This document shows positions 419 through 33,890 of a stretch of DNA of 64,000 nt, in pieces. The position numbers and the translations under genes were made by a program. Below the pieces are notes generated by a model. It did no database searches. It saw nothing but the letters and a program-made list of their open reading frames with translations, and was not told where the DNA came from. Origin of the DNA: a virus (Duplodnaviria; Heunggongvirae; Uroviricota; Caudoviricetes); the IMG/VR virus record IMGVR_UViG_651053022_000007, positions 28,836 to 92,835 of that record, one strand, 5' to 3'. Within the stretch, counting starts at the first letter, position 1, and each line of letters opens with the position of its first letter.

Positions 419-1003
419 ATGAAAAGTATCCAGGACGTCCGCAGGCAAAATCTCAACGACTTGATCGACCGTGAATTCAATGGTGTTCAGACGCGGATGG
501 CAGAAAAACTTGGAACTCAGGCAAATCTGGTAAACCGCTGGGCTCTTGGAAAGAAGGTTATCGGCGACCAGGTTGCGCGAAAAATTGAAGCTGCCGCCAA
601 TAAACCCCGTAACTGGCTTGATATCGATCGCTCGCTTTCTCAGGAAGGTTTTCAGCCTGTCGGCCCAAGCGACATTGGTCAGCTGGCGGCTCACAACCTG
701 GAACGCTGGATGAGCGAAAGCCGCGACCTTTCAACGCAGGGAAAACTACACCGCGCATCCGGCGTCGCCCAGGTGACAATCAGCCGCCTGTTAAACAATG
801 AAGTCAGCGTTTCCATTTCCACCCTGGAGAATGTTGCATCCGCATTCGGGCGTCACGGCTATGAATTACTGATTCACCCGCACGACCCTGCGACTATCAA
901 CTATGATCGCTCGCGCTACGCATTGTTACCTGAAACAGAGAAGGCAAAGATCGAAAGTTACATTGAATTTGTCATCAACCAGAACGAAAAAAGAAAACAA
1001 TAA
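419..1003 (+). CDS. tandem-HTH (XRE-like) DNA-binding protein, putative phage repressor/regulator
   Basis: 194-aa ORF with two HTH-like segments (QTRMAEKLGTQANLVNRW and ASGVAQVTISRLL). Confidence 0.5.
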   Translation: MKSIQDVRRQNLNDLIDREFNGVQTRMAEKLGTQANLVNRWALGKKVIGDQVARKIEAAANKPRNWLDIDRSLSQEGFQPVGPSDIGQLAAHNLERWMSESRDLSTQGKLHRASGVAQVTISRLLNNEVSVSISTLENVASAFGRHGYELLIHPHDPATINYDRSRYALLPETEKAKIESYIEFVINQNEKRKQ

Positions 1004-5547: not shown

Positions 5548-6804
5548 TTATTTATTACTGTCTTCCATCCACTTCTCAAACTTCGACGGGGAGAACGGAA
5601 TCAGATCCGTATGCTCCCCGTCAATCCAGGAATCAATCATATCTGCCCACTGCTGCAACATGTAGGCGCGCTGTCTGGCGTATTCCGCTTTGTTATATAC
5701 GGCGCGCACACCTTTCTGCTCATGTGCCAGAGCCTTTTCAATCCAGTCTGAAGGATAACCAGCCTCATGCAACAACGTACTGGCTGTACGGCGCATATCG
5801 TGTACGGTGAAGTCCTGAATATGCTCACCATCTTCATTTATTATTTTCACCGTTCTGTCGATCAGAGAGTTCAACGCGGCATTAGATAATGGCTTCCGGA
5901 AATTGTAACGACCAGGAACCAGGTATTCACTTCCACCAGCGCACATCTGCAACCCAACCAATATATCCTGTGCTTGTTTAGGCAGGTAAATAACGTGCGC
6001 CCGGCTTCCCTTCATGCGGCCTGAAGGAATTGTCCATGTCCATTTTTTAAAATCTATTTCATCCCACGTTGCATTGGTGAATTCGCCTTTACGAACCATA
6101 GTGATAAGCACCAGCTTTAAAGCCATTTTCATAGTGCCCATAGCACCAATGGCATCCAGCGTGCGGAAGAACAGACCAATTTCTTCTGGTGTCAGTGTTC
6201 GCTCTCGTGGTTTAAATATGGCGATAGACGAAGGTTTAATGTCAGCAGCAGGATTAAACAAACCATGACCACGGTCATTGGCGTGACGGTATACGCTGCT
6301 GATGATCTCCCTGGCCTGTACTGCTGTTGCCCGACCACCGCGTTCGACAATCCGGTCACACAAATCACGAACCATCGATGTGGTAATTTCAGCCATCATT
6401 TTGTTGCCAAGAACCGGAAGTATGTCACGGTCGATCACCGCCTGCTTCATTGCGCGGGTACTTTCAGCCAGGATGACGTGTTTCATATAACTGTCGGTAT
6501 GTACCGCAAACGTCTCGGCACCACGAATCTTTTTGATACCGTCACGTTTAGCCGCAGCCGGCGACTGGCCTGCTTTAAGCAGCTTCTTTGCAGCAATCAG
6601 TTCTTCTCGCGCTTCTGCCAGGCTGATACCGTCACGCCCATACTGCCCGATTACCAGTGTTTCGCGGCGACCGTTGATACGGTAGTCATAGCGAAACGAG
6701 ACCGTACCTGACGTAAGCACAGCTACATACAGCCCGTCACGATCGGAAACTTTGTACAGTTTGTCCTGTGGCTTGAGGTTTTTTAATTTTGTATCGGTAA
6801 GCAC
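5548..6804 (-). CDS. int: tyrosine integrase (P4-type, N-terminal arm-binding domain)
   Basis: 418 aa; MLTDTKLKNLKP...LYVAV N-terminus and C-terminal catalytic region (HDMRRT, Y near C-terminus). Confidence 0.85.
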   Translation of the reverse strand: MLTDTKLKNLKPQDKLYKVSDRDGLYVAVLTSGTVSFRYDYRINGRRETLVIGQYGRDGISLAEAREELIAAKKLLKAGQSPAAAKRDGIKKIRGAETFAVHTDSYMKHVILAESTRAMKQAVIDRDILPVLGNKMMAEITTSMVRDLCDRIVERGGRATAVQAREIISSVYRHANDRGHGLFNPAADIKPSSIAIFKPRERTLTPEEIGLFFRTLDAIGAMGTMKMALKLVLITMVRKGEFTNATWDEIDFKKWTWTIPSGRMKGSRAHVIYLPKQAQDILVGLQMCAGGSEYLVPGRYNFRKPLSNAALNSLIDRTVKIINEDGEHIQDFTVHDMRRTASTLLHEAGYPSDWIEKALAHEQKGVRAVYNKAEYARQRAYMLQQWADMIDSWIDGEHTDLIPFSPSKFEKWMEDSNK

Positions 6805-7121
6805 AATTCACCCGTATAGAAACCATTTTCATGACGGTATGAGAGTATACCTTTAAGGTAATACCGTCACCTGTACCGCCGAAAAATATGGTGTAGAGTG
6901 AATAGAAATGAATACGTAAAAACAAAAACCCTCTGCAAAAACAGAGGGTTGAGTTGGCATCTGAATAGGAATGATTTGCTATGAGTTAGCTGTTAATCAT
7001 TCCCACTCAATTATTTACGGATACCATAACCAATTGAGTGATAACATTTTTCCAAAACTCAATTTTCCTCGTACCGTTTTATATACCGTCACCGGAAATC
7101 AGTACCATGAAAAATGCCATG
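6805..7121. promoter_or_regulatory. integrase upstream region / candidate attP
   Basis: repeated ATACCGTCAC-like motifs, degenerate palindrome ATACC-TTTAA-GGTAA at 6847-6861, hairpin AACCCTCTG..CAGAGGGTT at 6925-6950; lies between int and the lysis cassette. Confidence 0.3.
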
Positions 7122-8991: not shown

Positions 8992-11454
8992 TCAATTCCC
9001 TGTTAATTGCAAAACTTGCTCTTCCAGCTTTTTAACCCTGCGTCTCATCATCGCAGATTCCAGAATCAGAGCCTCTTCATAACGGATACCGTAACATTCA
9101 CCAGCCTCGACGGCTTCGCGTACCAGAACCTTTGTCTGTATAAGTGGGTAAACTCCTGCAGAATGCTCTTCTTCCGTCACATCCCTGTATTCTGCCGGGG
9201 TCTCATTCCACTTGTCATAACAGATAAATGCCAGTCGTGACACATCTATGCCTTCATTCTGAAATACACTGATAACATGCTGCGCAACTGCACCAAAGTG
9301 CCATCTTGCTCCGTCTTTACCTTTCACTTCGATCCTGTCAAGGTACTGGTATGAAACCCATTCCACTCTTTCCCATGCGTCCAGTATTTTCTCATCAATA
9401 ACCTCTGGAGCAGTCTTGAAACGCGCATCGGACAGCACCGTAAACGCTGACTGGGTAAATCCCCCCGACCATGCACGACCAGCCAACCCAAGAGAATAAG
9501 TATTCGTTGTCGATGGTGTCATGGCTGAATCAGAAAACTGTATATATTCTGAATTTCCAGTAGATATTCGAATATTTCCATTTATTAGCGACATAGTGCC
9601 TTTAGTATTATCACTATTGAATAATTTCAATTGCGAACTTATACCGCCTCCCACAGCCAGAGATACATCGCCTTCAGCAAGCATTCTGAATTTATCTGCA
9701 GAAACAAGCGTCTGGTTAGCAAGGTTAAAATATTTAACCCACCATTCAAAACGCCCTGACATAGTCCCAACGTACTGACCAAGCGCAGGGACGTGAACAA
9801 CATTGCTATTTGTAGTGCCGTCTATACTGGAAATACCAGTCACCGCTGATGCAGAACTCAGAATATTATTTCTGTCACCCGGATGTTTAATTTCAACAAA
9901 GTTCCTGATACACCCTTCCTCGAAGGTAACCACGCCGGAAGAACTATACATGGGGAATATTGACGCATAATTACTGCGTGCAGCATCTAAGAAACGAATG
10001 GTTGTAGATGTCTGCAGATCTCCTGATTCATTTTTCCCATCACACCCAGTCATTAGAATATTACTGGCAATATTATTATTTCCCTGAACGGTGACTCCGT
10101 GCGCCTGCTTTGCGTCCGATTCAGAGTAATCAACCAGCACATTCGAAATCAGGTTACCAGTCCCCTTGCCAACAACTACTGCGGCGTATTTTGGGTTGTT
10201 AGCCATTACACTGCTAATGATATTATTCGTTGGGGCAGTTTCCGTCTCAGTTCCATTGTAAACAACGTGCTGACACTCTTCACCAATAACATTGCTGACA
10301 ATGTTATATTTTGCTGCTGTTTTAAGTTCCACTGCACCAAACTGAGGATAATTTCTGGCTATCACACCATCAATTAGCGTATTTTGCGATGAATCAAAAA
10401 GCACACAACCTGCTTTTTTATTATTTGCGAACCCTAAATACTCTCCTCTTATATCTCTAACAATGTAACCTGACGGAATACCATTATTCGGATAAGCGAT
10501 CAAGCTAAATCCTGTTCCTCGCGTATTTGTAAATCTGATATTTTTAACCGATACATCATGGCCACCTGAAAATGACACCTGGTGTCCCTGCACACTATCA
10601 TCTGATTTATTTCCCATAATTGTTAGCGTACTAAGCATGCCACCATCGGGCATGTTAAAAACCAGATGATTACCATCTCTGTCATACTGTTTTATCGTTC
10701 CCCCACCTGTTCCGTACAAGCCACAACGTGAAAGAGAAACTAAAGATGTATTGAATACCCCTTCCGGAACAAAAACACTGCTAAACGAATGTAATGATTT
10801 TGTAAAAGCATCCTTGTTATCATTTAAGATTCCATTTTGAGCTCCAAAATCCTTAATGCTGACACCATCACGCATCTTATCCTGGAACGTTCTGTATACC
10901 GCTCCAGAACCATACTGAATAAACCAACCAAAACCACCAATAACTCCGGCGATTGCAGCATCGACATAATTACGCATTGAGCGATTATTTACAGCGTCCT
11001 GCTCAAGTGATGGATCGGCAAGGTTAGATATTCTGTTTTGCTTTGCATCGTAATATTTTGCAAGCAAAGATGGTTTCATCAATGCACGTCTGAACCACCC
11101 AAAACATCGCTGGATCAGCATCGTCAGGTAGTCAAATGCATCCTCATGAACTTCGGGGAAAAATTTTCCCTGATTGCGAAGATCAGTCTCCTGCACCACA
11201 TCAAGCACACGCTCTATCGTGATTCGCCAGCCAGCAGCAAGCGGCGACGGAAGAACCACTGCACCGCCACTATAAGTTCCCGCCCCTGTTACCGTATAAC
11301 CAGCATCCAGCACTAGTTTTGTAACGTTACCGTTAAGGTCAGACACCTGAACAACCAGGTCGGATTTTTTGAAAATACGGAAGGTATACGGAAATGATGT
11401 CGTAACGCCGTTACCTGTGTATTCGTTGTGGTCAACTTCGGTTGAGACCGTCAT
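8992..11454 (-). CDS. tailspike / tail fibre with C-terminal S74 intramolecular chaperone domain
   Basis: 820 aa; conserved N-terminal head-binding-like segment (NEYTGNGVTTSFPYTF), long beta-rich central part, C-terminal chaperone-of-endosialidase-like domain (DARFKT...GARWHFGAVAQ). Confidence 0.8.
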   Translation of the reverse strand: MTVSTEVDHNEYTGNGVTTSFPYTFRIFKKSDLVVQVSDLNGNVTKLVLDAGYTVTGAGTYSGGAVVLPSPLAAGWRITIERVLDVVQETDLRNQGKFFPEVHEDAFDYLTMLIQRCFGWFRRALMKPSLLAKYYDAKQNRISNLADPSLEQDAVNNRSMRNYVDAAIAGVIGGFGWFIQYGSGAVYRTFQDKMRDGVSIKDFGAQNGILNDNKDAFTKSLHSFSSVFVPEGVFNTSLVSLSRCGLYGTGGGTIKQYDRDGNHLVFNMPDGGMLSTLTIMGNKSDDSVQGHQVSFSGGHDVSVKNIRFTNTRGTGFSLIAYPNNGIPSGYIVRDIRGEYLGFANNKKAGCVLFDSSQNTLIDGVIARNYPQFGAVELKTAAKYNIVSNVIGEECQHVVYNGTETETAPTNNIISSVMANNPKYAAVVVGKGTGNLISNVLVDYSESDAKQAHGVTVQGNNNIASNILMTGCDGKNESGDLQTSTTIRFLDAARSNYASIFPMYSSSGVVTFEEGCIRNFVEIKHPGDRNNILSSASAVTGISSIDGTTNSNVVHVPALGQYVGTMSGRFEWWVKYFNLANQTLVSADKFRMLAEGDVSLAVGGGISSQLKLFNSDNTKGTMSLINGNIRISTGNSEYIQFSDSAMTPSTTNTYSLGLAGRAWSGGFTQSAFTVLSDARFKTAPEVIDEKILDAWERVEWVSYQYLDRIEVKGKDGARWHFGAVAQHVISVFQNEGIDVSRLAFICYDKWNETPAEYRDVTEEEHSAGVYPLIQTKVLVREAVEAGECYGIRYEEALILESAMMRRRVKKLEEQVLQLTGN

Positions 11455-11558
11455 GTTAAATCTCCAGATAGTCGCAGCACCCGTTGCGCCGCATATCTGG
11501 TTATTCTATTACCCAAAAAACCATATATGGATAGAAAGACTGTGAATATGAATAGATA

Positions 11559-11573
11559 TTACCTTTCAGGTAA
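11559..11573. promoter_or_regulatory. operator-like palindrome TTACC-N5-GGTAA
   Basis: TTACCTTTCAGGTAA read directly. Confidence 0.45.
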
Positions 11574-11610
11574 TTTGCAAAACGTGCTGGATAGCAAACA
11601 AATTATTTGC

Positions 11611-11630
11611 TACTGTATAAATATACAGTT
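11611..11630. promoter_or_regulatory. LexA (SOS) box
   Basis: TACTGTATAAATATACAGTT = CTGT-N8-ACAG with AT-rich spacer, about 20 nt upstream of the 11651 start. Confidence 0.6.
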
Positions 11631-11650
11631 ATTGCATGGAGAAGATTAAG

Positions 11651-11908
11651 ATGCAGCAGTATCACTATCCACTGGAAGAGGGATTTACCGAAAGGATTCA
11701 CACGCCGGGAGGCGTCAGGTCACTGGTGGAGGGATCGCACTTGATGAAATTACTCCGGGATCTCGATAAGGATGGATTTAATGTCGATGGCCCACTTGCC
11801 GAACTGACTGCACTGATTAACTACGTCACCAGCTCACAGATGTCTATGCAGGATCTGCAAACACATCTCGACTATTGTGCCGAACAATTACGAAAACAAA
11901 CCAGATAA
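11651..11908 (+). CDS. small protein homologous to the C-terminal domain of Ant; putative SOS-controlled antirepressor-like factor
   Basis: ORF 11636..11908, likely start at MQQYHY (GGAG 8 nt upstream); about 40% identical by eye to the C-terminal 65 aa of 12224..12919. Confidence 0.45.
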   Translation: MQQYHYPLEEGFTERIHTPGGVRSLVEGSHLMKLLRDLDKDGFNVDGPLAELTALINYVTSSQMSMQDLQTHLDYCAEQLRKQTR

Positions 11909-12223
11909 GGTTTGCAATCACCAAATGGAGTGCTTATATTTACCTTTGCGGTAAATTTACAACGCACTCCTCTTGTGCCATAGTAATCGAGCACTGGCAA
12001 AATCCAGTGCCGGGATTGGCGTCCCGGATTACTAAAAGGCGCATTCACCGCGCAAGCGGTTTTTTTATGCGTATAGCACGGCCACATTCGTATTATGGTG
12101 GGCTGTGTGGGGGCACCGAAAGGTGCGCCGGGTCCTTTTAGCCGGTTACGCCAACCCTGCACAGTTCACCACCAACCGATTGGCGTCGGTAGTGGTGATT
12201 AACCAGACTAAAAGGTAACCACT

Positions 12224-12919
12224 ATGACAGCTACAAAAAGCACGTCCATTTTTTCTTTCGAATCCCAAGCCGATATACGGGTAATCGTCATTAATGGTGA
12301 GCCATGGTTTATCGCTTCAGATGTTTGTCGGGCTATAGGCATAGCAAACCATCGAGATGCTGTTCGAAAACTTGATGATGATGAGAAGGGCGTCGCTTCA
12401 ACCGACACCCCTGGCGGTGAGCAAGAATCGATCATCATCTCCGAGTCAGGCCTCTACACACTGATCCTCCGCTGCCGCGACGCAGTGACACCAGGCACTA
12501 TCCCCTACCGCTTTCGCAAATGGGTTACAGGTGATGTTCTTCCTCAGATCCGTCGCACCGGAAGTTACATTAAAAACTCGCTCCCGCAGGAAGAACGCAT
12601 AAAGATGGTTGCCGACCAGGTAGCCAGCGCCACAGCATCAGCAGTGATGCAGGCAATGAAGGTAGAGAACAAAACCTACAGCGCCCCACTGAAGCCCGGC
12701 TACCGCAGCCTGATTCATTCGCCGTCTGGTGTTCTTGGCCTGACGGAGAACTCACTGCTGATGAATCTGCTGAACCAGTTACAGGACGACGGGCATGACG
12801 TATCGGGCGCGGCGGCGGAGCTGACCACCATGTTCTGCTACATCGTCGGTGTGAGCAAATGCCTGCGTGATATCCAGACGCACGCGGAGTACATCAGCGA
12901 CAAAGCAGGGTTCTTCTGA
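12224..12919 (+). CDS. ant: Bro-N domain antirepressor (Ant)
   Basis: 231 aa; N-terminal Bro-N-like region (IRVIVINGEPWFIASDVCRAIGI...SGLYTLIL). Confidence 0.75.
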   Translation: MTATKSTSIFSFESQADIRVIVINGEPWFIASDVCRAIGIANHRDAVRKLDDDEKGVASTDTPGGEQESIIISESGLYTLILRCRDAVTPGTIPYRFRKWVTGDVLPQIRRTGSYIKNSLPQEERIKMVADQVASATASAVMQAMKVENKTYSAPLKPGYRSLIHSPSGVLGLTENSLLMNLLNQLQDDGHDVSGAAAELTTMFCYIVGVSKCLRDIQTHAEYISDKAGFF

Positions 12920-12985
12920 CGGGCGGCGGCACAGGGATGTGCCTTTAAAATAATCATTGGCGATGTGATGTAGATTCGCGTAATA

Positions 12986-13000
12986 TTACCTTAAAGGTAA
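12986..13000. promoter_or_regulatory. operator-like palindrome TTACC-N5-GGTAA
   Basis: TTACCTTAAAGGTAA directly followed by AGGAGG RBS. Confidence 0.45.
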
Positions 13001-13011
13001 AGGAGGCGCGA

Positions 13012-13179
13012 TATGACAGCGTTGAAAAATCGTACTCAGCACAATGAACAAGCCAAGCAATGCTGGGATGTCATTGGAAAAGTTATGCTTGGTCGCGCAA
13101 GCAAAGAGCGCGACAAGGATATGGTTTACCAGACAGGAACATCTTTTAGCGACTTCAAGGCGGCATTTCGCTCCAAATA
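13012..13179 (+). CDS. small hypothetical protein (55 aa)
   Basis: ATG 5 nt after AGGAGG; MTALKNRTQHNEQAKQCWDVIGKV...; not in supplied track. Confidence 0.3.
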
Positions 13180-13200
13180 GAAGCACATCAGGAGTTTTCC

Positions 13201-13644
13201 TTGAAGTTTAACATTAGAATATCTAATAGTTTTCTACATGGGGAAAGCAACACCCCTTTCGCTGTAGACGGACCTTTCCTTACTGATGATGAAATAAAAA
13301 TCATACAAAGGTTTTTAGAGGATGTTGCCAATGGAAGGGCGCTTGTTGGAAAAAACAAGCCATCGTGGGTTGATGATAACCATGATAAAATTCCCGGCTC
13401 AGACAATTATGAGCAAGAGAATTATTGGCATTATCATTGTGGGCCAACATGGTATCCAAACACATTTAAGAATTATACCATTAACTTAAATTTCAACCCT
13501 GGCGGAATGCATTCTAATGAATGCATTCATTATGCAAAAAATGATAATGAAATTGTCATTGTTGGATTTTCAAGAGAACACATACCTTTCCTTTCATCAG
13601 ATGGAAACAACAATCCGCTTTTTAATGATGAAGAAGAAGAATAA
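13201..13644 (+). CDS. hypothetical AT-rich moron protein (147 aa, acidic C-terminal tail)
   Basis: TTG start 8 nt after CAGGAG; low-GC coding region; Cys/His-containing, ends NDEEEE; followed by terminator. Confidence 0.45.
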   Translation: MKFNIRISNSFLHGESNTPFAVDGPFLTDDEIKIIQRFLEDVANGRALVGKNKPSWVDDNHDKIPGSDNYEQENYWHYHCGPTWYPNTFKNYTINLNFNPGGMHSNECIHYAKNDNEIVIVGFSREHIPFLSSDGNNNPLFNDEEEE

Positions 13645-13666
13645 GCCCGCGCTGCGGGCTTTTTTG
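13645..13666 (+). terminator. rho-independent terminator
   Basis: GCCCGC-GCT-GCGGGC hairpin plus T-run directly after stop. Confidence 0.6.
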
Positions 13667-13737
13667 TGGACGAAACAAAAGTCAGTGCTACACTCATTGA
13701 CGCCACATTGAGGTGGCTTATAGATGGAAATTTCACA

Positions 13738-28657: not shown

Positions 28658-30333
28658 TGTGATTGCCCACCCTGACCACTAACTGCATTCGCCATAGCTG
28701 ACAAAACACTCGGATCCGAAGTTTTAGCTTCGCTTAGCGTCTTGGCGCCCTGTGCCGCCGCCATCCCCATCGCCATCATTTGTTGCTGCTGTTGCTGCTG
28801 TGCCCGTTGCTGGCGAGCCTGCTCAACCTGTTCCTGCGGAACAATGACGGTTGGAGACACTCCGGACATATCAGCGAATGCATCGATCGCCTGATCAACG
28901 TTGAGTTTGTCGAGAGCTTCTGGTTTCGCTTGCGCAAGTTGACCAATGAAGTTGACCGTAGACGCCAGACTGGACAGGCCGATAGACTTCTGCGCCTGAG
29001 CCATGACGGAAATGTATTCGACCTTCAGGGGCATACCTTCCATCACGTCTGGCGGTGGCGGCAGCATGTTTTTACGCACCATCATTGAGAAAGCGCGGTC
29101 AATGAGAGGATTAAGACATTCGTCGTTCAGACGCTCCAGAACCGGCCCCAACATCAGAAGTTTTTCTTCTTTCATTTCGATCACTGCTTCAACAGGCATC
29201 GAGCGGGTATTGATGTTCTGCAACATCATGAACAGATCGACAAAGTAGGCGCTGTTAATGATTTGACGAGTGTCCTGAATGTCTGCTACCAGATCTGCTG
29301 TACTGGGGTTAACCAGATAAGCAGGCCTGAAGCCATCCTGACCAGTAATCTGATCGATATACGTGATGTCGCCAGGAAGAAGGGAGGCGCGCTGATTCTT
29401 GAGGGAAGTCGGAGCAACCATCGGCGGATTGGTGGCTTTATCAATCAACTGCGACTTGCGCTTCTGGAGAAGTTGCAATGCCTTAACAGGTCCAAGCGCC
29501 AGCATACCCGGGCATGATGATCCATAAACATCTTCGCCATTAACTTCCCAGCGCGGAGCCATAATTGGAAACTCATCAAATCCGGACTCACGCAACAACT
29601 TGTCGTTATCGCCACCAACCTCGTAATAAACCGATTTGAATGGCTTGTTCTTGCTATCCAGCTTCGATGTATCGCGGTCAATGTTCGGGTAAACCGAATG
29701 CATCACGTCAATCCACTTCTCGTAGGTGCCGCTTTCCCACATGCTTTTTACGGATTCGCTGACGTTATTTAGCCCGAACTCCTGAACAAGCTGACGAACA
29801 GTCATAGAGAACTTGCGAAAACAGGTGTCCACACTGCCACGAGGTGAGTTAGCCAGGTAGTAACTGCCTATCGGGAATGGCATTGTGCGAATGATGTCCT
29901 CGTCATCCTCCAGCACCGCCATTGCACCAGTGCTGTATGTGCCGAGGCTTCCGTATAACTGCGGAAGAGACTGGTAGAGATTCGACTTATTGAACATATC
30001 GTTCATGCGGTTCTGCACCGCCTCGAGCCACAACTTAACAGGACCATAATCCATCATTTCAGGATCTGGCGTAGCCAGGCGAAACCACGGACGCGCGGGG
30101 CTTGTGATGCCTGACATCATGCCGCTGGCGAGAGTGCGCGCCGCCATAGTCCCGGTCGAATCAATAATGCGTGTATTGCGTCGATCGTTACGGTTGACCT
30201 CAGAAGTCAGAAAGCGGGAACCACGCGGGTTGATGTAATCACTCAACTCGCGCCAGTGCGGCTCAAACGACTGACGCTCGCTTTCAAGTTGTGCGAACTG
30301 TTTGTTCAATCGCTCTTTAGTTGTTTCCGCCAT
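28654..30333 (-). CDS. portal protein
   Basis: 559 aa; position upstream of scaffold and capsid; C-terminal Gln/Ala-rich tail. Confidence 0.7.
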   Translation of the reverse strand: MAETTKERLNKQFAQLESERQSFEPHWRELSDYINPRGSRFLTSEVNRNDRRNTRIIDSTGTMAARTLASGMMSGITSPARPWFRLATPDPEMMDYGPVKLWLEAVQNRMNDMFNKSNLYQSLPQLYGSLGTYSTGAMAVLEDDEDIIRTMPFPIGSYYLANSPRGSVDTCFRKFSMTVRQLVQEFGLNNVSESVKSMWESGTYEKWIDVMHSVYPNIDRDTSKLDSKNKPFKSVYYEVGGDNDKLLRESGFDEFPIMAPRWEVNGEDVYGSSCPGMLALGPVKALQLLQKRKSQLIDKATNPPMVAPTSLKNQRASLLPGDITYIDQITGQDGFRPAYLVNPSTADLVADIQDTRQIINSAYFVDLFMMLQNINTRSMPVEAVIEMKEEKLLMLGPVLERLNDECLNPLIDRAFSMMVRKNMLPPPPDVMEGMPLKVEYISVMAQAQKSIGLSSLASTVNFIGQLAQAKPEALDKLNVDQAIDAFADMSGVSPTVIVPQEQVEQARQQRAQQQQQQQMMAMGMAAAQGAKTLSEAKTSDPSVLSAMANAVSGQGGQSQ

Positions 30334-30622: not shown

Positions 30623-30659
30623 TTGACATTTAACGCGCTAATTATTACCTTTCAGGTAA
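30623..30659 (+). promoter_or_regulatory. putative promoter with operator-like palindrome
   Basis: TTGACA at 30623-30628 and TTACC-TTTCA-GGTAA at 30645-30659. Confidence 0.4.
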
Positions 30660-33772: not shown

Positions 33773-33890
33773 AACCACCGTGGTAATAGTTACCGTTGTG
33801 GTAATAGTACCATGCAAAATAAAGCCGCCATAGTTGGCGGCAGTATTCAAAACCCATCAAATTCATCATGCATAATCTACTCGTGACATG

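Follow-up and report, generated by a model that had tools for sequence, protein, structure and literature searches.

This study concerns two neighbouring antirepressor genes at positions 11559–12919 of a 64,000-nucleotide stretch of phage DNA (IMG/VR record IMGVR_UViG_651053022_000007, positions 28,836 to 92,835; hereafter the window), a small one behind a LexA box and a larger one behind a C4/IsrK-type RNA cassette. The small gene has its closest described counterpart in the Rep/Ant switch of Salmonella phage SPC32H (PDB 5D50 and 5D4Z), reportedly the subject of Kim and Ryu (J Virol, 2013) and of Kim et al. (PNAS, 2016); entry 5D50 is the Rep–Ant complex of that phage. The cassette recalls the immI operon of P1 and P7, which is said to be composed of the c4 antisense RNA, icd and ant and to be controlled by C1 at Op51 (Citron and Schuster, 1990). 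The small antirepressors GfoA and GfhA of Gifsy phages were reportedly described by Lemire et al. in 2011. In SPC32H, the antirepressor that is produced after LexA self-cleavage disables the repressor (PMC7380047), and Ant, itself a tetramer, breaks Rep tetramers (PMC9638917). C4 controls ant in P1/P7 immI (PMC8201110), while the isrK-orf45-anrP module of Gifsy-1 produces an IsrK RNA that ends at a terminator, with read-through to the C4-like STnc1160 and an antirepressor-like gene; the short IsrK RNA can act on the long transcript (Hershko-Shalev et al., 2016, PMC4825925). The LexA–Ant–Rep core is already known and structurally solved, and control of antirepressors by C4 and IsrK is also known. 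Our literature searches found no description of a tandem arrangement of a LexA-gated Ant with an RNA-gated second antirepressor, of homology that links the tails of Bro-N, AntA or Rha antirepressors to the Ant of SPC32H, or of a Rep operator attached to the IsrK/C4 cassette. The locus is apparently an undescribed combination of known parts.

We consider it probable that this locus joins an SPC32H-type LexA–Ant–Rep trigger to a relay formed by a Bro-N::Ant fusion under C4/IsrK control. Our confidence in the identity of the parts is very high, whereas the relay logic is put forward tentatively. The stretch from 11.3 to 13.2 kb is flanked by a leftward tailspike gene (8992–11454) and leftward virion genes, and megablast aligned it at 94–98% identity with Escherichia phages phiV10, TL-2011b and vB_EcoP_ZX5 (hereafter ZX5), members of the genus Uetakevirus, epsilon15 group. 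By these matches, the window is assigned to an E. coli phage of the epsilon15/phiV10 type (Uetakevirus). At least 80% of 11460–12925 is found in 239 of 5426 complete E. coli genomes (~4%).

The small gene encodes a complete antirepressor:

11651–11908 (stop codon included), + strand: ant, 85-residue SPC32H-type antirepressor, from matches to 5D50_E, SPC32H and phrog_450

Against PDB sequences, the product matches 5D50_E, 'Anti-repressor protein', with an E value of 1.6e-47 over residues 2–84 (3–85 of the entry); it is ~89% identical to the product of SPC32H ant by tblastn and matches phrog_450 at E 1e-47. Judged from these end-to-end matches, it is a full-length orthologue of SPC32H Ant, and alignment A3, which brings together free-standing Ants and fused tails without any gap, shows it to be a complete domain and no fragment. 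SPC32H, epsilon15 and SPN1S each carry a single Ant-fold copy (tblastn), and in SPC32H nothing stands between ant and the next leftward gene; there is no second antirepressor gene. In phiV10, a 16-bp deletion (ATCTGCTGAACCAGTT) in the Bro-N gene frameshifts the Ant-like tail and ant is intact (locus L001, 5297–5462, aligned to 12760–12925 of the window); GenBank accordingly splits the Bro-N antirepressor into p23 (194 aa) and p22 (29 aa). Because SPC32H does without the second gene and that of phiV10 is frameshifted, the small Ant would be the primary SOS trigger. As a side observation, phiV10, a viable temperate phage, is a natural knock-out of the Bro-N antirepressor. An earlier note on this DNA had taken the 85-residue open reading frame (ORF) for a truncated paralogue of unknown role, copied from the C-terminus of the Bro-N protein. 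Its end-to-end match with 5D50_E and its standing as the sole antirepressor at the SPC32H locus contradict the first point and reverse the direction of the second: since the 85-residue ORF is complete and stands alone in SPC32H, the Bro-N protein would be a derived fusion that carries the Ant module. The homology that the note reported between the two ORFs is real (pairwise BLASTP, E 5e-16), but it spans 78 residues, not 65.

The region upstream of ant holds a LexA box and a candidate promoter:

11611–11630: LexA box TACTGTATAAATATACAGTT, 18/20 match to the 20-nt consensus TACTGTATATATATACAGTA
11588–11616, + strand: candidate ant promoter, -35 TGGATA (11588–11593), 17-nt spacer, -10 TACTGT (11611–11616)

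In a scan with the LexA consensus at up to three mismatches, TACTGTATAAATATACAGTT was the sole match in the 64 kb, and 100 shuffled sequences gave none. The core CTGT-N8-ACAG occurs three times in the window, with an A/T spacer in the copy at 11611–11630 alone. Its end lies 22 nt from the ant ATG (11651), with the Shine–Dalgarno sequence (SD) GGAGAAG at 11638–11644 in between. The distance from LexA box to ATG is constant (37–38 nt) in 11 of the 12 loci scanned; the exception, locus L014, bears an ATGT variant, as read from its sequence. The -10 element TACTGT lies inside the LexA box, so that promoter and box plausibly overlap; the consensus promoter scan did not call the TGGATA/TACTGT pair, which is a manual reading. 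Both TGCTGGATAG and TACTGT are invariant across the window, SPC32H, phiV10 and Tyrion (alignment A1), and the whole upstream region of these four, comprising the palindrome discussed below, TGCTGGATAG, LexA box and SD, aligns column for column. Comparison of 849 bp around ant in the GenBank records of SPC32H and SPC32N revealed two differing positions. At one of them, 24 nt ahead of the ant start codon, the ACAG of the LexA box in SPC32H reads AAAG in SPC32N; the homologous base of the window is C11626. SPC32N is said to differ from SPC32H by two nucleotides, one of which falls within the LexA site and renders Ant constitutive. The change in the LexA box fits the published LexA control of Ant (PMC7380047).

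The presumed target of the antirepressors and its candidate binding sites are also present in the window:

419–1003, + strand: rep, SPC32H-type prophage repressor, from a phmmer match to PDB 5D50_A
11559–11573: probable Rep operator TTACCTTTCAGGTAA, 38 nt upstream of the LexA box and 92 nt before the ant ATG
11940–11954: probable Rep operator TTACCTTTGCGGTAA, abutting the -35 element of the IsrK promoter
12986–13000: third probable Rep operator TTACCTTAAAGGTAA, immediately ahead of the SD and start codon of a 55-residue ORF (13013–13180)

The protein encoded at 419–1003 matches 5D50_A, 'Repressor', over its full length (phmmer against PDB, E 3.5e-42), and Rep is the presumed target of both antirepressors. 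The palindrome has the form TTACC-N5-GGTAA, with eight exact sites in the window and 15 at one mismatch or fewer, against ~1 expected. Sites at 349, 1061 and 1123 flank rep, as does one at 301, and others precede ant (11559), the IsrK promoter (11940) and the 55-residue ORF (12986); SPC32H has ten exact sites, six of them flanking rep. The placement is fixed as well. The palindrome starts at -91 or -92 from the ant ATG in 11 of the 12 loci scanned (-108 in L014), and in each of the six loci with a mapped IsrK the operator starts precisely 51 nt ahead of the 5′ end of that RNA; L007 is one of the six and keeps this spacing despite a 1.1-kb insert between ant and the operator/IsrK unit. An operator follows the second antirepressor gene in nine of the 11 loci possessing that gene, and in the window this site, at 12986, falls between a candidate -10 element and the SD, a repressing position. 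Because of its enrichment and fixed placement, the palindrome is a probable Rep operator, to which we infer that Rep binds. Further exact sites lie away from the immunity region (30645–30659 and 33790–33804), a one-mismatch site lies near int/attP (6847–6861), and in SPC32H, too, several transcription units are preceded by a copy; this distribution suggests that Rep may act at many promoters. Three elements of the earlier note are thus borne out, namely a LexA box just upstream of the 85-residue ORF, an operator-like palindrome further upstream, which recurs in related loci, and the 419..1003 regulator as likely target; its proposal of LexA-gated antirepression gains support from the SPC32H-type Ant homology and from the alignment of the box with that of SPC32H.

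When compared with SPC32H, the locus shows an 89% identical Ant, a homologous Rep, the same divergent orientation relative to the tailspike gene, a LexA box at equal distance from the start codon, and the palindrome upstream of ant and around rep. In contrast, the SPC32H locus ends after ant, whereas the window continues with the IsrK/C4 cassette, the gene for the second antirepressor and two additional operators; the two Reps are substantially diverged (E 3.5e-42). Tum of coliphage 186 and GfoA/GfhA of Gifsy phages share with this arrangement a non-cleavable repressor and the sensing of SOS via a small LexA-repressed antirepressor (PMC7380047), but no sequence relationship to Ant was detected, Ant being a small family of its own.

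The second antirepressor adopts a composite organization:

12224–12919, + strand: second antirepressor, 231 residues, with Bro-N head, helical linker and Ant-like tail
12272–12544: Bro-N head (residues 17–107), Pfam PF02498, E 6e-21, 75.3 bits against a gathering score of 25.6
12671–12904: Ant-like tail (residues 150–227), from BLASTP, 5D50_E and phrog_450 matches

BLASTP aligned residues 2–79 of the small Ant with residues 150–227 of the Bro-N protein at 40% identity, and the tail itself matches 5D50_E (E 1e-13) and phrog_450 (E 1e-35). An exhaustive HMMER search for the Ant fold returned only 44 clusters at 50% identity, in which the domain is either free-standing (82–95 residues) or the C-terminal domain on a Bro-N, AntA or Rha head. 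Fusions with AntA and Rha heads occupy the same place in other Uetakevirus-type prophages, in the order tailspike, small Ant, IsrK, C4, fusion. Each of the three types of fusion carries a gap-free, full-length Ant domain with all family-invariant residues, and the tail of the AntA fusion P0257 is identical to that of the window at 79 of 82 positions, the heads being unrelated. In Stx phages, the same RNA cassette precedes an unrelated antirepressor in the nin region: in Stx1 phage AU5Stx1 (locus L013, 3482–3740), an IsrK/C4 cassette of ~80% nucleotide identity stands ahead of a 224-residue Ant, unrelated to both window proteins, and has a consensus-like promoter (TTGACG/TATATT) and no TTACC-N5-GGTAA operator. 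It follows that the RNA cassette is a module separate from the Ant fold. Taken together, these comparisons indicate that RNA switch, head and tail are three independent modules, the tail being the constant one here. The product of ZX5 ORF4 is 98% identical to the window fusion. Its overexpression lowered lysogens from ~1e9 to 1e6 (~1000-fold) and reduced repressor transcripts, in a study that is silent on LexA, the small ORF and the RNAs (PMC9782041).

The spacer between ant and the Bro-N gene, 315 nt long, houses an IsrK-like RNA with a terminator, followed by a C4 antisense RNA:

11956–11984, + strand: candidate IsrK promoter from a promoter scan, -35 TTTACA, 17-nt spacer, TG-extended -10 CATAGT (11979)
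11991–12066, + strand: IsrK-like RNA, Rfam isrK 77.9 bits (gathering score 50), E 2.4e-16
12091–12176, + strand: C4 antisense RNA, Rfam C4 77.7 bits (gathering score 45), E 7.5e-15
12180–12215, + strand: downstream C4 targets, b2 TTGGCGT (12180–12186) and a2 CTAAAAGG (12208–12215)

The candidate promoter ends 7 nt before the IsrK 5′ end, and GCCATAGT is near-invariant among nine loci (alignment A2); a second candidate, TTGCAA at 11912 with TATATT at 11935–11940, would put the operator at +1. The IsrK-like RNA contains two targets, b1 TTGGCGT (12016–12022) and a1 CTAAAAGG (12032–12039), and ends at an intrinsic terminator (12047–12060 followed by T7); the terminator scan found none between ant and the IsrK segment. 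The C4 loops, a′ CCTTTTAG (12134–12141) and b′ ACGCCAA (12148–12154), are exactly complementary, as an 8-mer and a 7-mer, to the target pairs both upstream and downstream. The SD of the Bro-N gene falls within the downstream a2, which stops 8 nt short of the ATG of that gene; the corresponding distance to the start codon is 7–11 nt in all nine loci compared. The fold of 11991–12240 gives z = -5.1, and isrK and C4 score above the Rfam gathering scores in the window and six other loci; the c4-a1b1 model reaches 43.1 bits in the window, slightly below its gathering score of 46.7.

The nine loci display four a′ alleles (CCTTTTAG, CCTTTGTAG, CCACTTAG and CCTTTTTC) and two b′ alleles (ACGCCAA and AGACCAA), and each is compensated in both the upstream and the downstream targets. 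This compensation provides direct comparative evidence for selection on the pairing. The loop alleles are reassorted between close relatives (alignment A2; L003, L007, L010, L013, L014 and L015), which suggests that they may act as RNA-level immunity types like the c4 specificities of P1 and P7. Both downstream target sequences recur in the IsrK-like RNA, which may therefore serve as a decoy for C4. This would reconcile the two published models; the trans-activation reported for IsrK of Gifsy-1 could likewise be read as C4 decoy action. A search for a conserved leader ORF of the icd/orf45 type found none across eight Uetakevirus-type loci, where the ORF starting at the conserved AUG in C4 runs for 3–35 codons with variable ends; it has 35 codons in the window, not conserved among relatives, and extends beyond the segment end in the Stx1 copy. 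Such a leader peptide was rejected as a conserved feature on account of these variable lengths and ends. The ZX5 record (locus L016, 2145–2258, corresponding to 12105–12218 of the window) annotates an 'ash family protein' coding sequence wholly within the C4 RNA; because ORFs there are not conserved among relatives, this is probably a mis-annotated RNA gene.

The cassette shares with P1/P7 immI the match to the C4 covariance model, the two loops, the duplicated upstream and downstream targets with the downstream one over the ribosome-binding site, the antirepressor gene behind C4 and the allelic loop specificities; the probable Rep operator at the IsrK promoter may be a counterpart of Op51. 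The window differs in having no conserved icd-like leader ORF and a C4 RNA aimed at the SD of its antirepressor gene directly. Its antirepressor shows no relationship to P1 Ant, Rep takes the place of C1 as the repressor, and the cassette stands downstream of a separate LexA-gated antirepressor. The designation 'immI-type region' in the earlier note is therefore apt for immI of P1, by virtue of the C4 RNA, but not for that of P22: none of the four ORFs scanned between 11651 and 13644 has a Pfam match to Arc, Mnt or P22 Ant, and a P22-like reading was rejected. Gifsy-1 has, like the window, an IsrK RNA with an intrinsic terminator upstream of an antirepressor gene. In Gifsy-1 and Stx phages, however, the cassette is located in the nin/Q region with unrelated antirepressors and no TTACC operator, and the translational coupling of the orf45 type known from Gifsy-1 is not conserved in the window loci.

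On the reading we favour, LexA bound at 11611–11630 would repress the ant promoter until DNA damage removes it and Ant is made. Ant would then bind Rep and take it off the TTACC-N5-GGTAA operators, Rep being inactivated by the antirepressor and not cleaved, as expected of an SPC32H-type lysis-lysogeny switch. This first stage (LexA–Ant–Rep) is, by sequence, homologous to a characterised system. The second unit would be transcribed from the IsrK-type promoter, presumably under the control of Rep at the -51 operator, into a short terminated IsrK-like RNA and, by read-through, into a transcript comprising C4 and the mRNA of the Bro-N::Ant-like fusion. By pairing with TTGGCGT and CTAAAAGG in front of the fusion gene, the C4 loops would hide its SD and silence it as in P1 immI. 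Because no terminator stands between them, ant transcripts would run into the IsrK segment. Either loss of Rep or this read-through would raise the level of IsrK-type RNA, C4 would be titrated and the fusion translated, and its Ant-like tail would hit Rep again, a positive feedback that would make induction independent of continued SOS signalling. The complementarities indicate that a C4-type RNA can occlude the ribosome-binding site of the fusion gene and that the IsrK-like RNA carries matching decoy sites. That Uetakevirus-type phages use a two-step relay, in which LexA-released Ant starts induction and a head-swapped Ant-fold protein under a Rep operator and C4/IsrK control locks it in, is a possibility that we regard as a little more doubtful than the relay logic itself.

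Several points weigh against this reading. The AlphaFold2 model of the fusion is confident for the Bro-N head and poor for the linker and tail (mean predicted local distance difference test score, pLDDT, 68.7), and a Foldseek search of PDB with this model gave no match at E ≤0.001 and missed 5D50; the modelling is uninformative as to the fold, and the tail–Ant homology is read from sequence. With no more than 40% identity to Ant, the tail may favour a different Rep allele or just oligomerise. The operator, at -51 to -37, abuts the -35 element, and from there it could either repress the promoter or activate it in the manner of lambda CI at OR2. Finally, a 1.1-kb insert separates ant from IsrK in L007 and L008, and read-through coupling is therefore not universal.

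An alternative that we judge unlikely is that the fusion acts in trans as a superinfection weapon, targeting the Rep of heteroimmune relatives or biasing infection against lysogeny, with the C4 alleles providing P1/P7-like RNA immunity. The low identity of the tail to the resident Ant would suit such a role, as would the conservation of Ant (~89% identical) between phages with substantially diverged Reps, the reassortment of a′ and b′ alleles among close relatives and the accumulation of several cassettes in locus L018. Moreover, overexpression of ZX5 ORF4 altered lysogen numbers during infection (PMC9782041), and antirepressor cross-talk is documented between Gifsy prophages (PMC7380047). However, the Rep operator travels with the cassette and ties it to the resident Rep circuit, and the Ant-tail fusions occur, among the loci examined, only in Uetakevirus-type loci. 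Less probable still is that the tail is a mere tetramerisation module and the Bro-N, AntA or Rha head the effector, binding DNA or another target. SPC32H Ant is indeed tetrameric (PMC9638917), the family-conserved residues are largely hydrophobic or glycine, and the three heads are widespread with other tails; yet free Ant antirepresses without any head (the 5D50 complex), and three unrelated heads are swapped on a nearly identical tail at the same locus, as one would expect of a tail in which the function specific to this locus resides. Very improbable, and largely refuted, is that the Bro-N protein is the real antirepressor and the 85-residue ORF its truncated paralogue acting as decoy, partner or accessory: the homology of the two proteins, the 'anti-repressor' database label on the Bro-N gene alone and the antirepressor-like phenotype of ZX5 ORF4 overexpression speak for it, but the ORF matches the solved SPC32H Ant end to end and without gaps in A3, its type is the sole antirepressor at the locus in SPC32H and epsilon15, the LexA-box change between SPC32H and SPC32N lies directly ahead of the small ant, and phiV10 keeps this gene while its Bro-N gene is frameshifted.

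E. coli genomes label the 85-residue ORF 'hypothetical protein' and the larger one 'BRO-N domain-containing protein', and the 'anti-repressor' label in databases sits only on the Bro-N gene, the small ORF being 'hypothetical' or of 'unknown function'. The Ant family has no Pfam or NCBIfam model, its PHROGs entry phrog_450 reads 'unknown function', and RefSeq E. coli entries read 'hypothetical protein'; NCBIfam has no model for either antirepressor (Ant or Bro-N fusion), and in PADLOC neither Ant nor the fusion nor any of the small ORFs nearby matched a defence system.

Downstream of the cassette (12986–13644), the 55-residue ORF (phrog_8607), behind its Rep-type operator, is followed by a 147-residue ORF (phrog_5954), neither with a Pfam, NCBIfam or PADLOC match; sister loci carry in their place ORFs of 59 and 181 residues (faint YafO_toxin match). 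This could possibly be a Rep-controlled moron or toxin-like pair. Matches to Trp and Phe leaders at 13557–13667 were weak, under the gathering scores, and were disregarded. In the chromosome of E. coli UPEC-774U (L018, 8500–12400), a Uetakevirus-type prophage combines the small Ant with a 218-residue 'antirepressor Ant', a further Bro-N cassette in inverted orientation and an antirepressor pseudogene; this locus looks like a hotspot for antirepressor cassettes. The att core of phiV10 and ZX5, ATTGAGTGGGAATGATT, is present in a single copy at 6995–7011, between int (5548–6804) and the lysis genes, and attP therefore looks intact, not split. The segment 36500–42500 matches other prophage and insertion sequences (DUF968, antitermination protein, IS3).

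These results expose an annotation gap: the characterised SPC32H Ant is still called 'hypothetical' or of 'unknown function', though the module is present in ~4% of complete E. coli genomes. They also provide a natural dissection of multi-domain phage antirepressors, in which the same tail occurs both by itself, as Ant, and joined to three heads that are unrelated to one another; it is therefore probably the tail that binds the repressor. If this is true, the function of the Bro-N, AntA and Rha heads, which are very common, becomes directly testable, and the reassorting C4 alleles would add a layer of RNA immunity specificity like that of P1 and P7. Two induction inputs, SOS via LexA and RNA control via C4/IsrK, would be linked onto one repressor, and this link may underlie commitment, spontaneous induction and cross-talk within a prophage family that is common in pathogenic E. 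coli and Salmonella.

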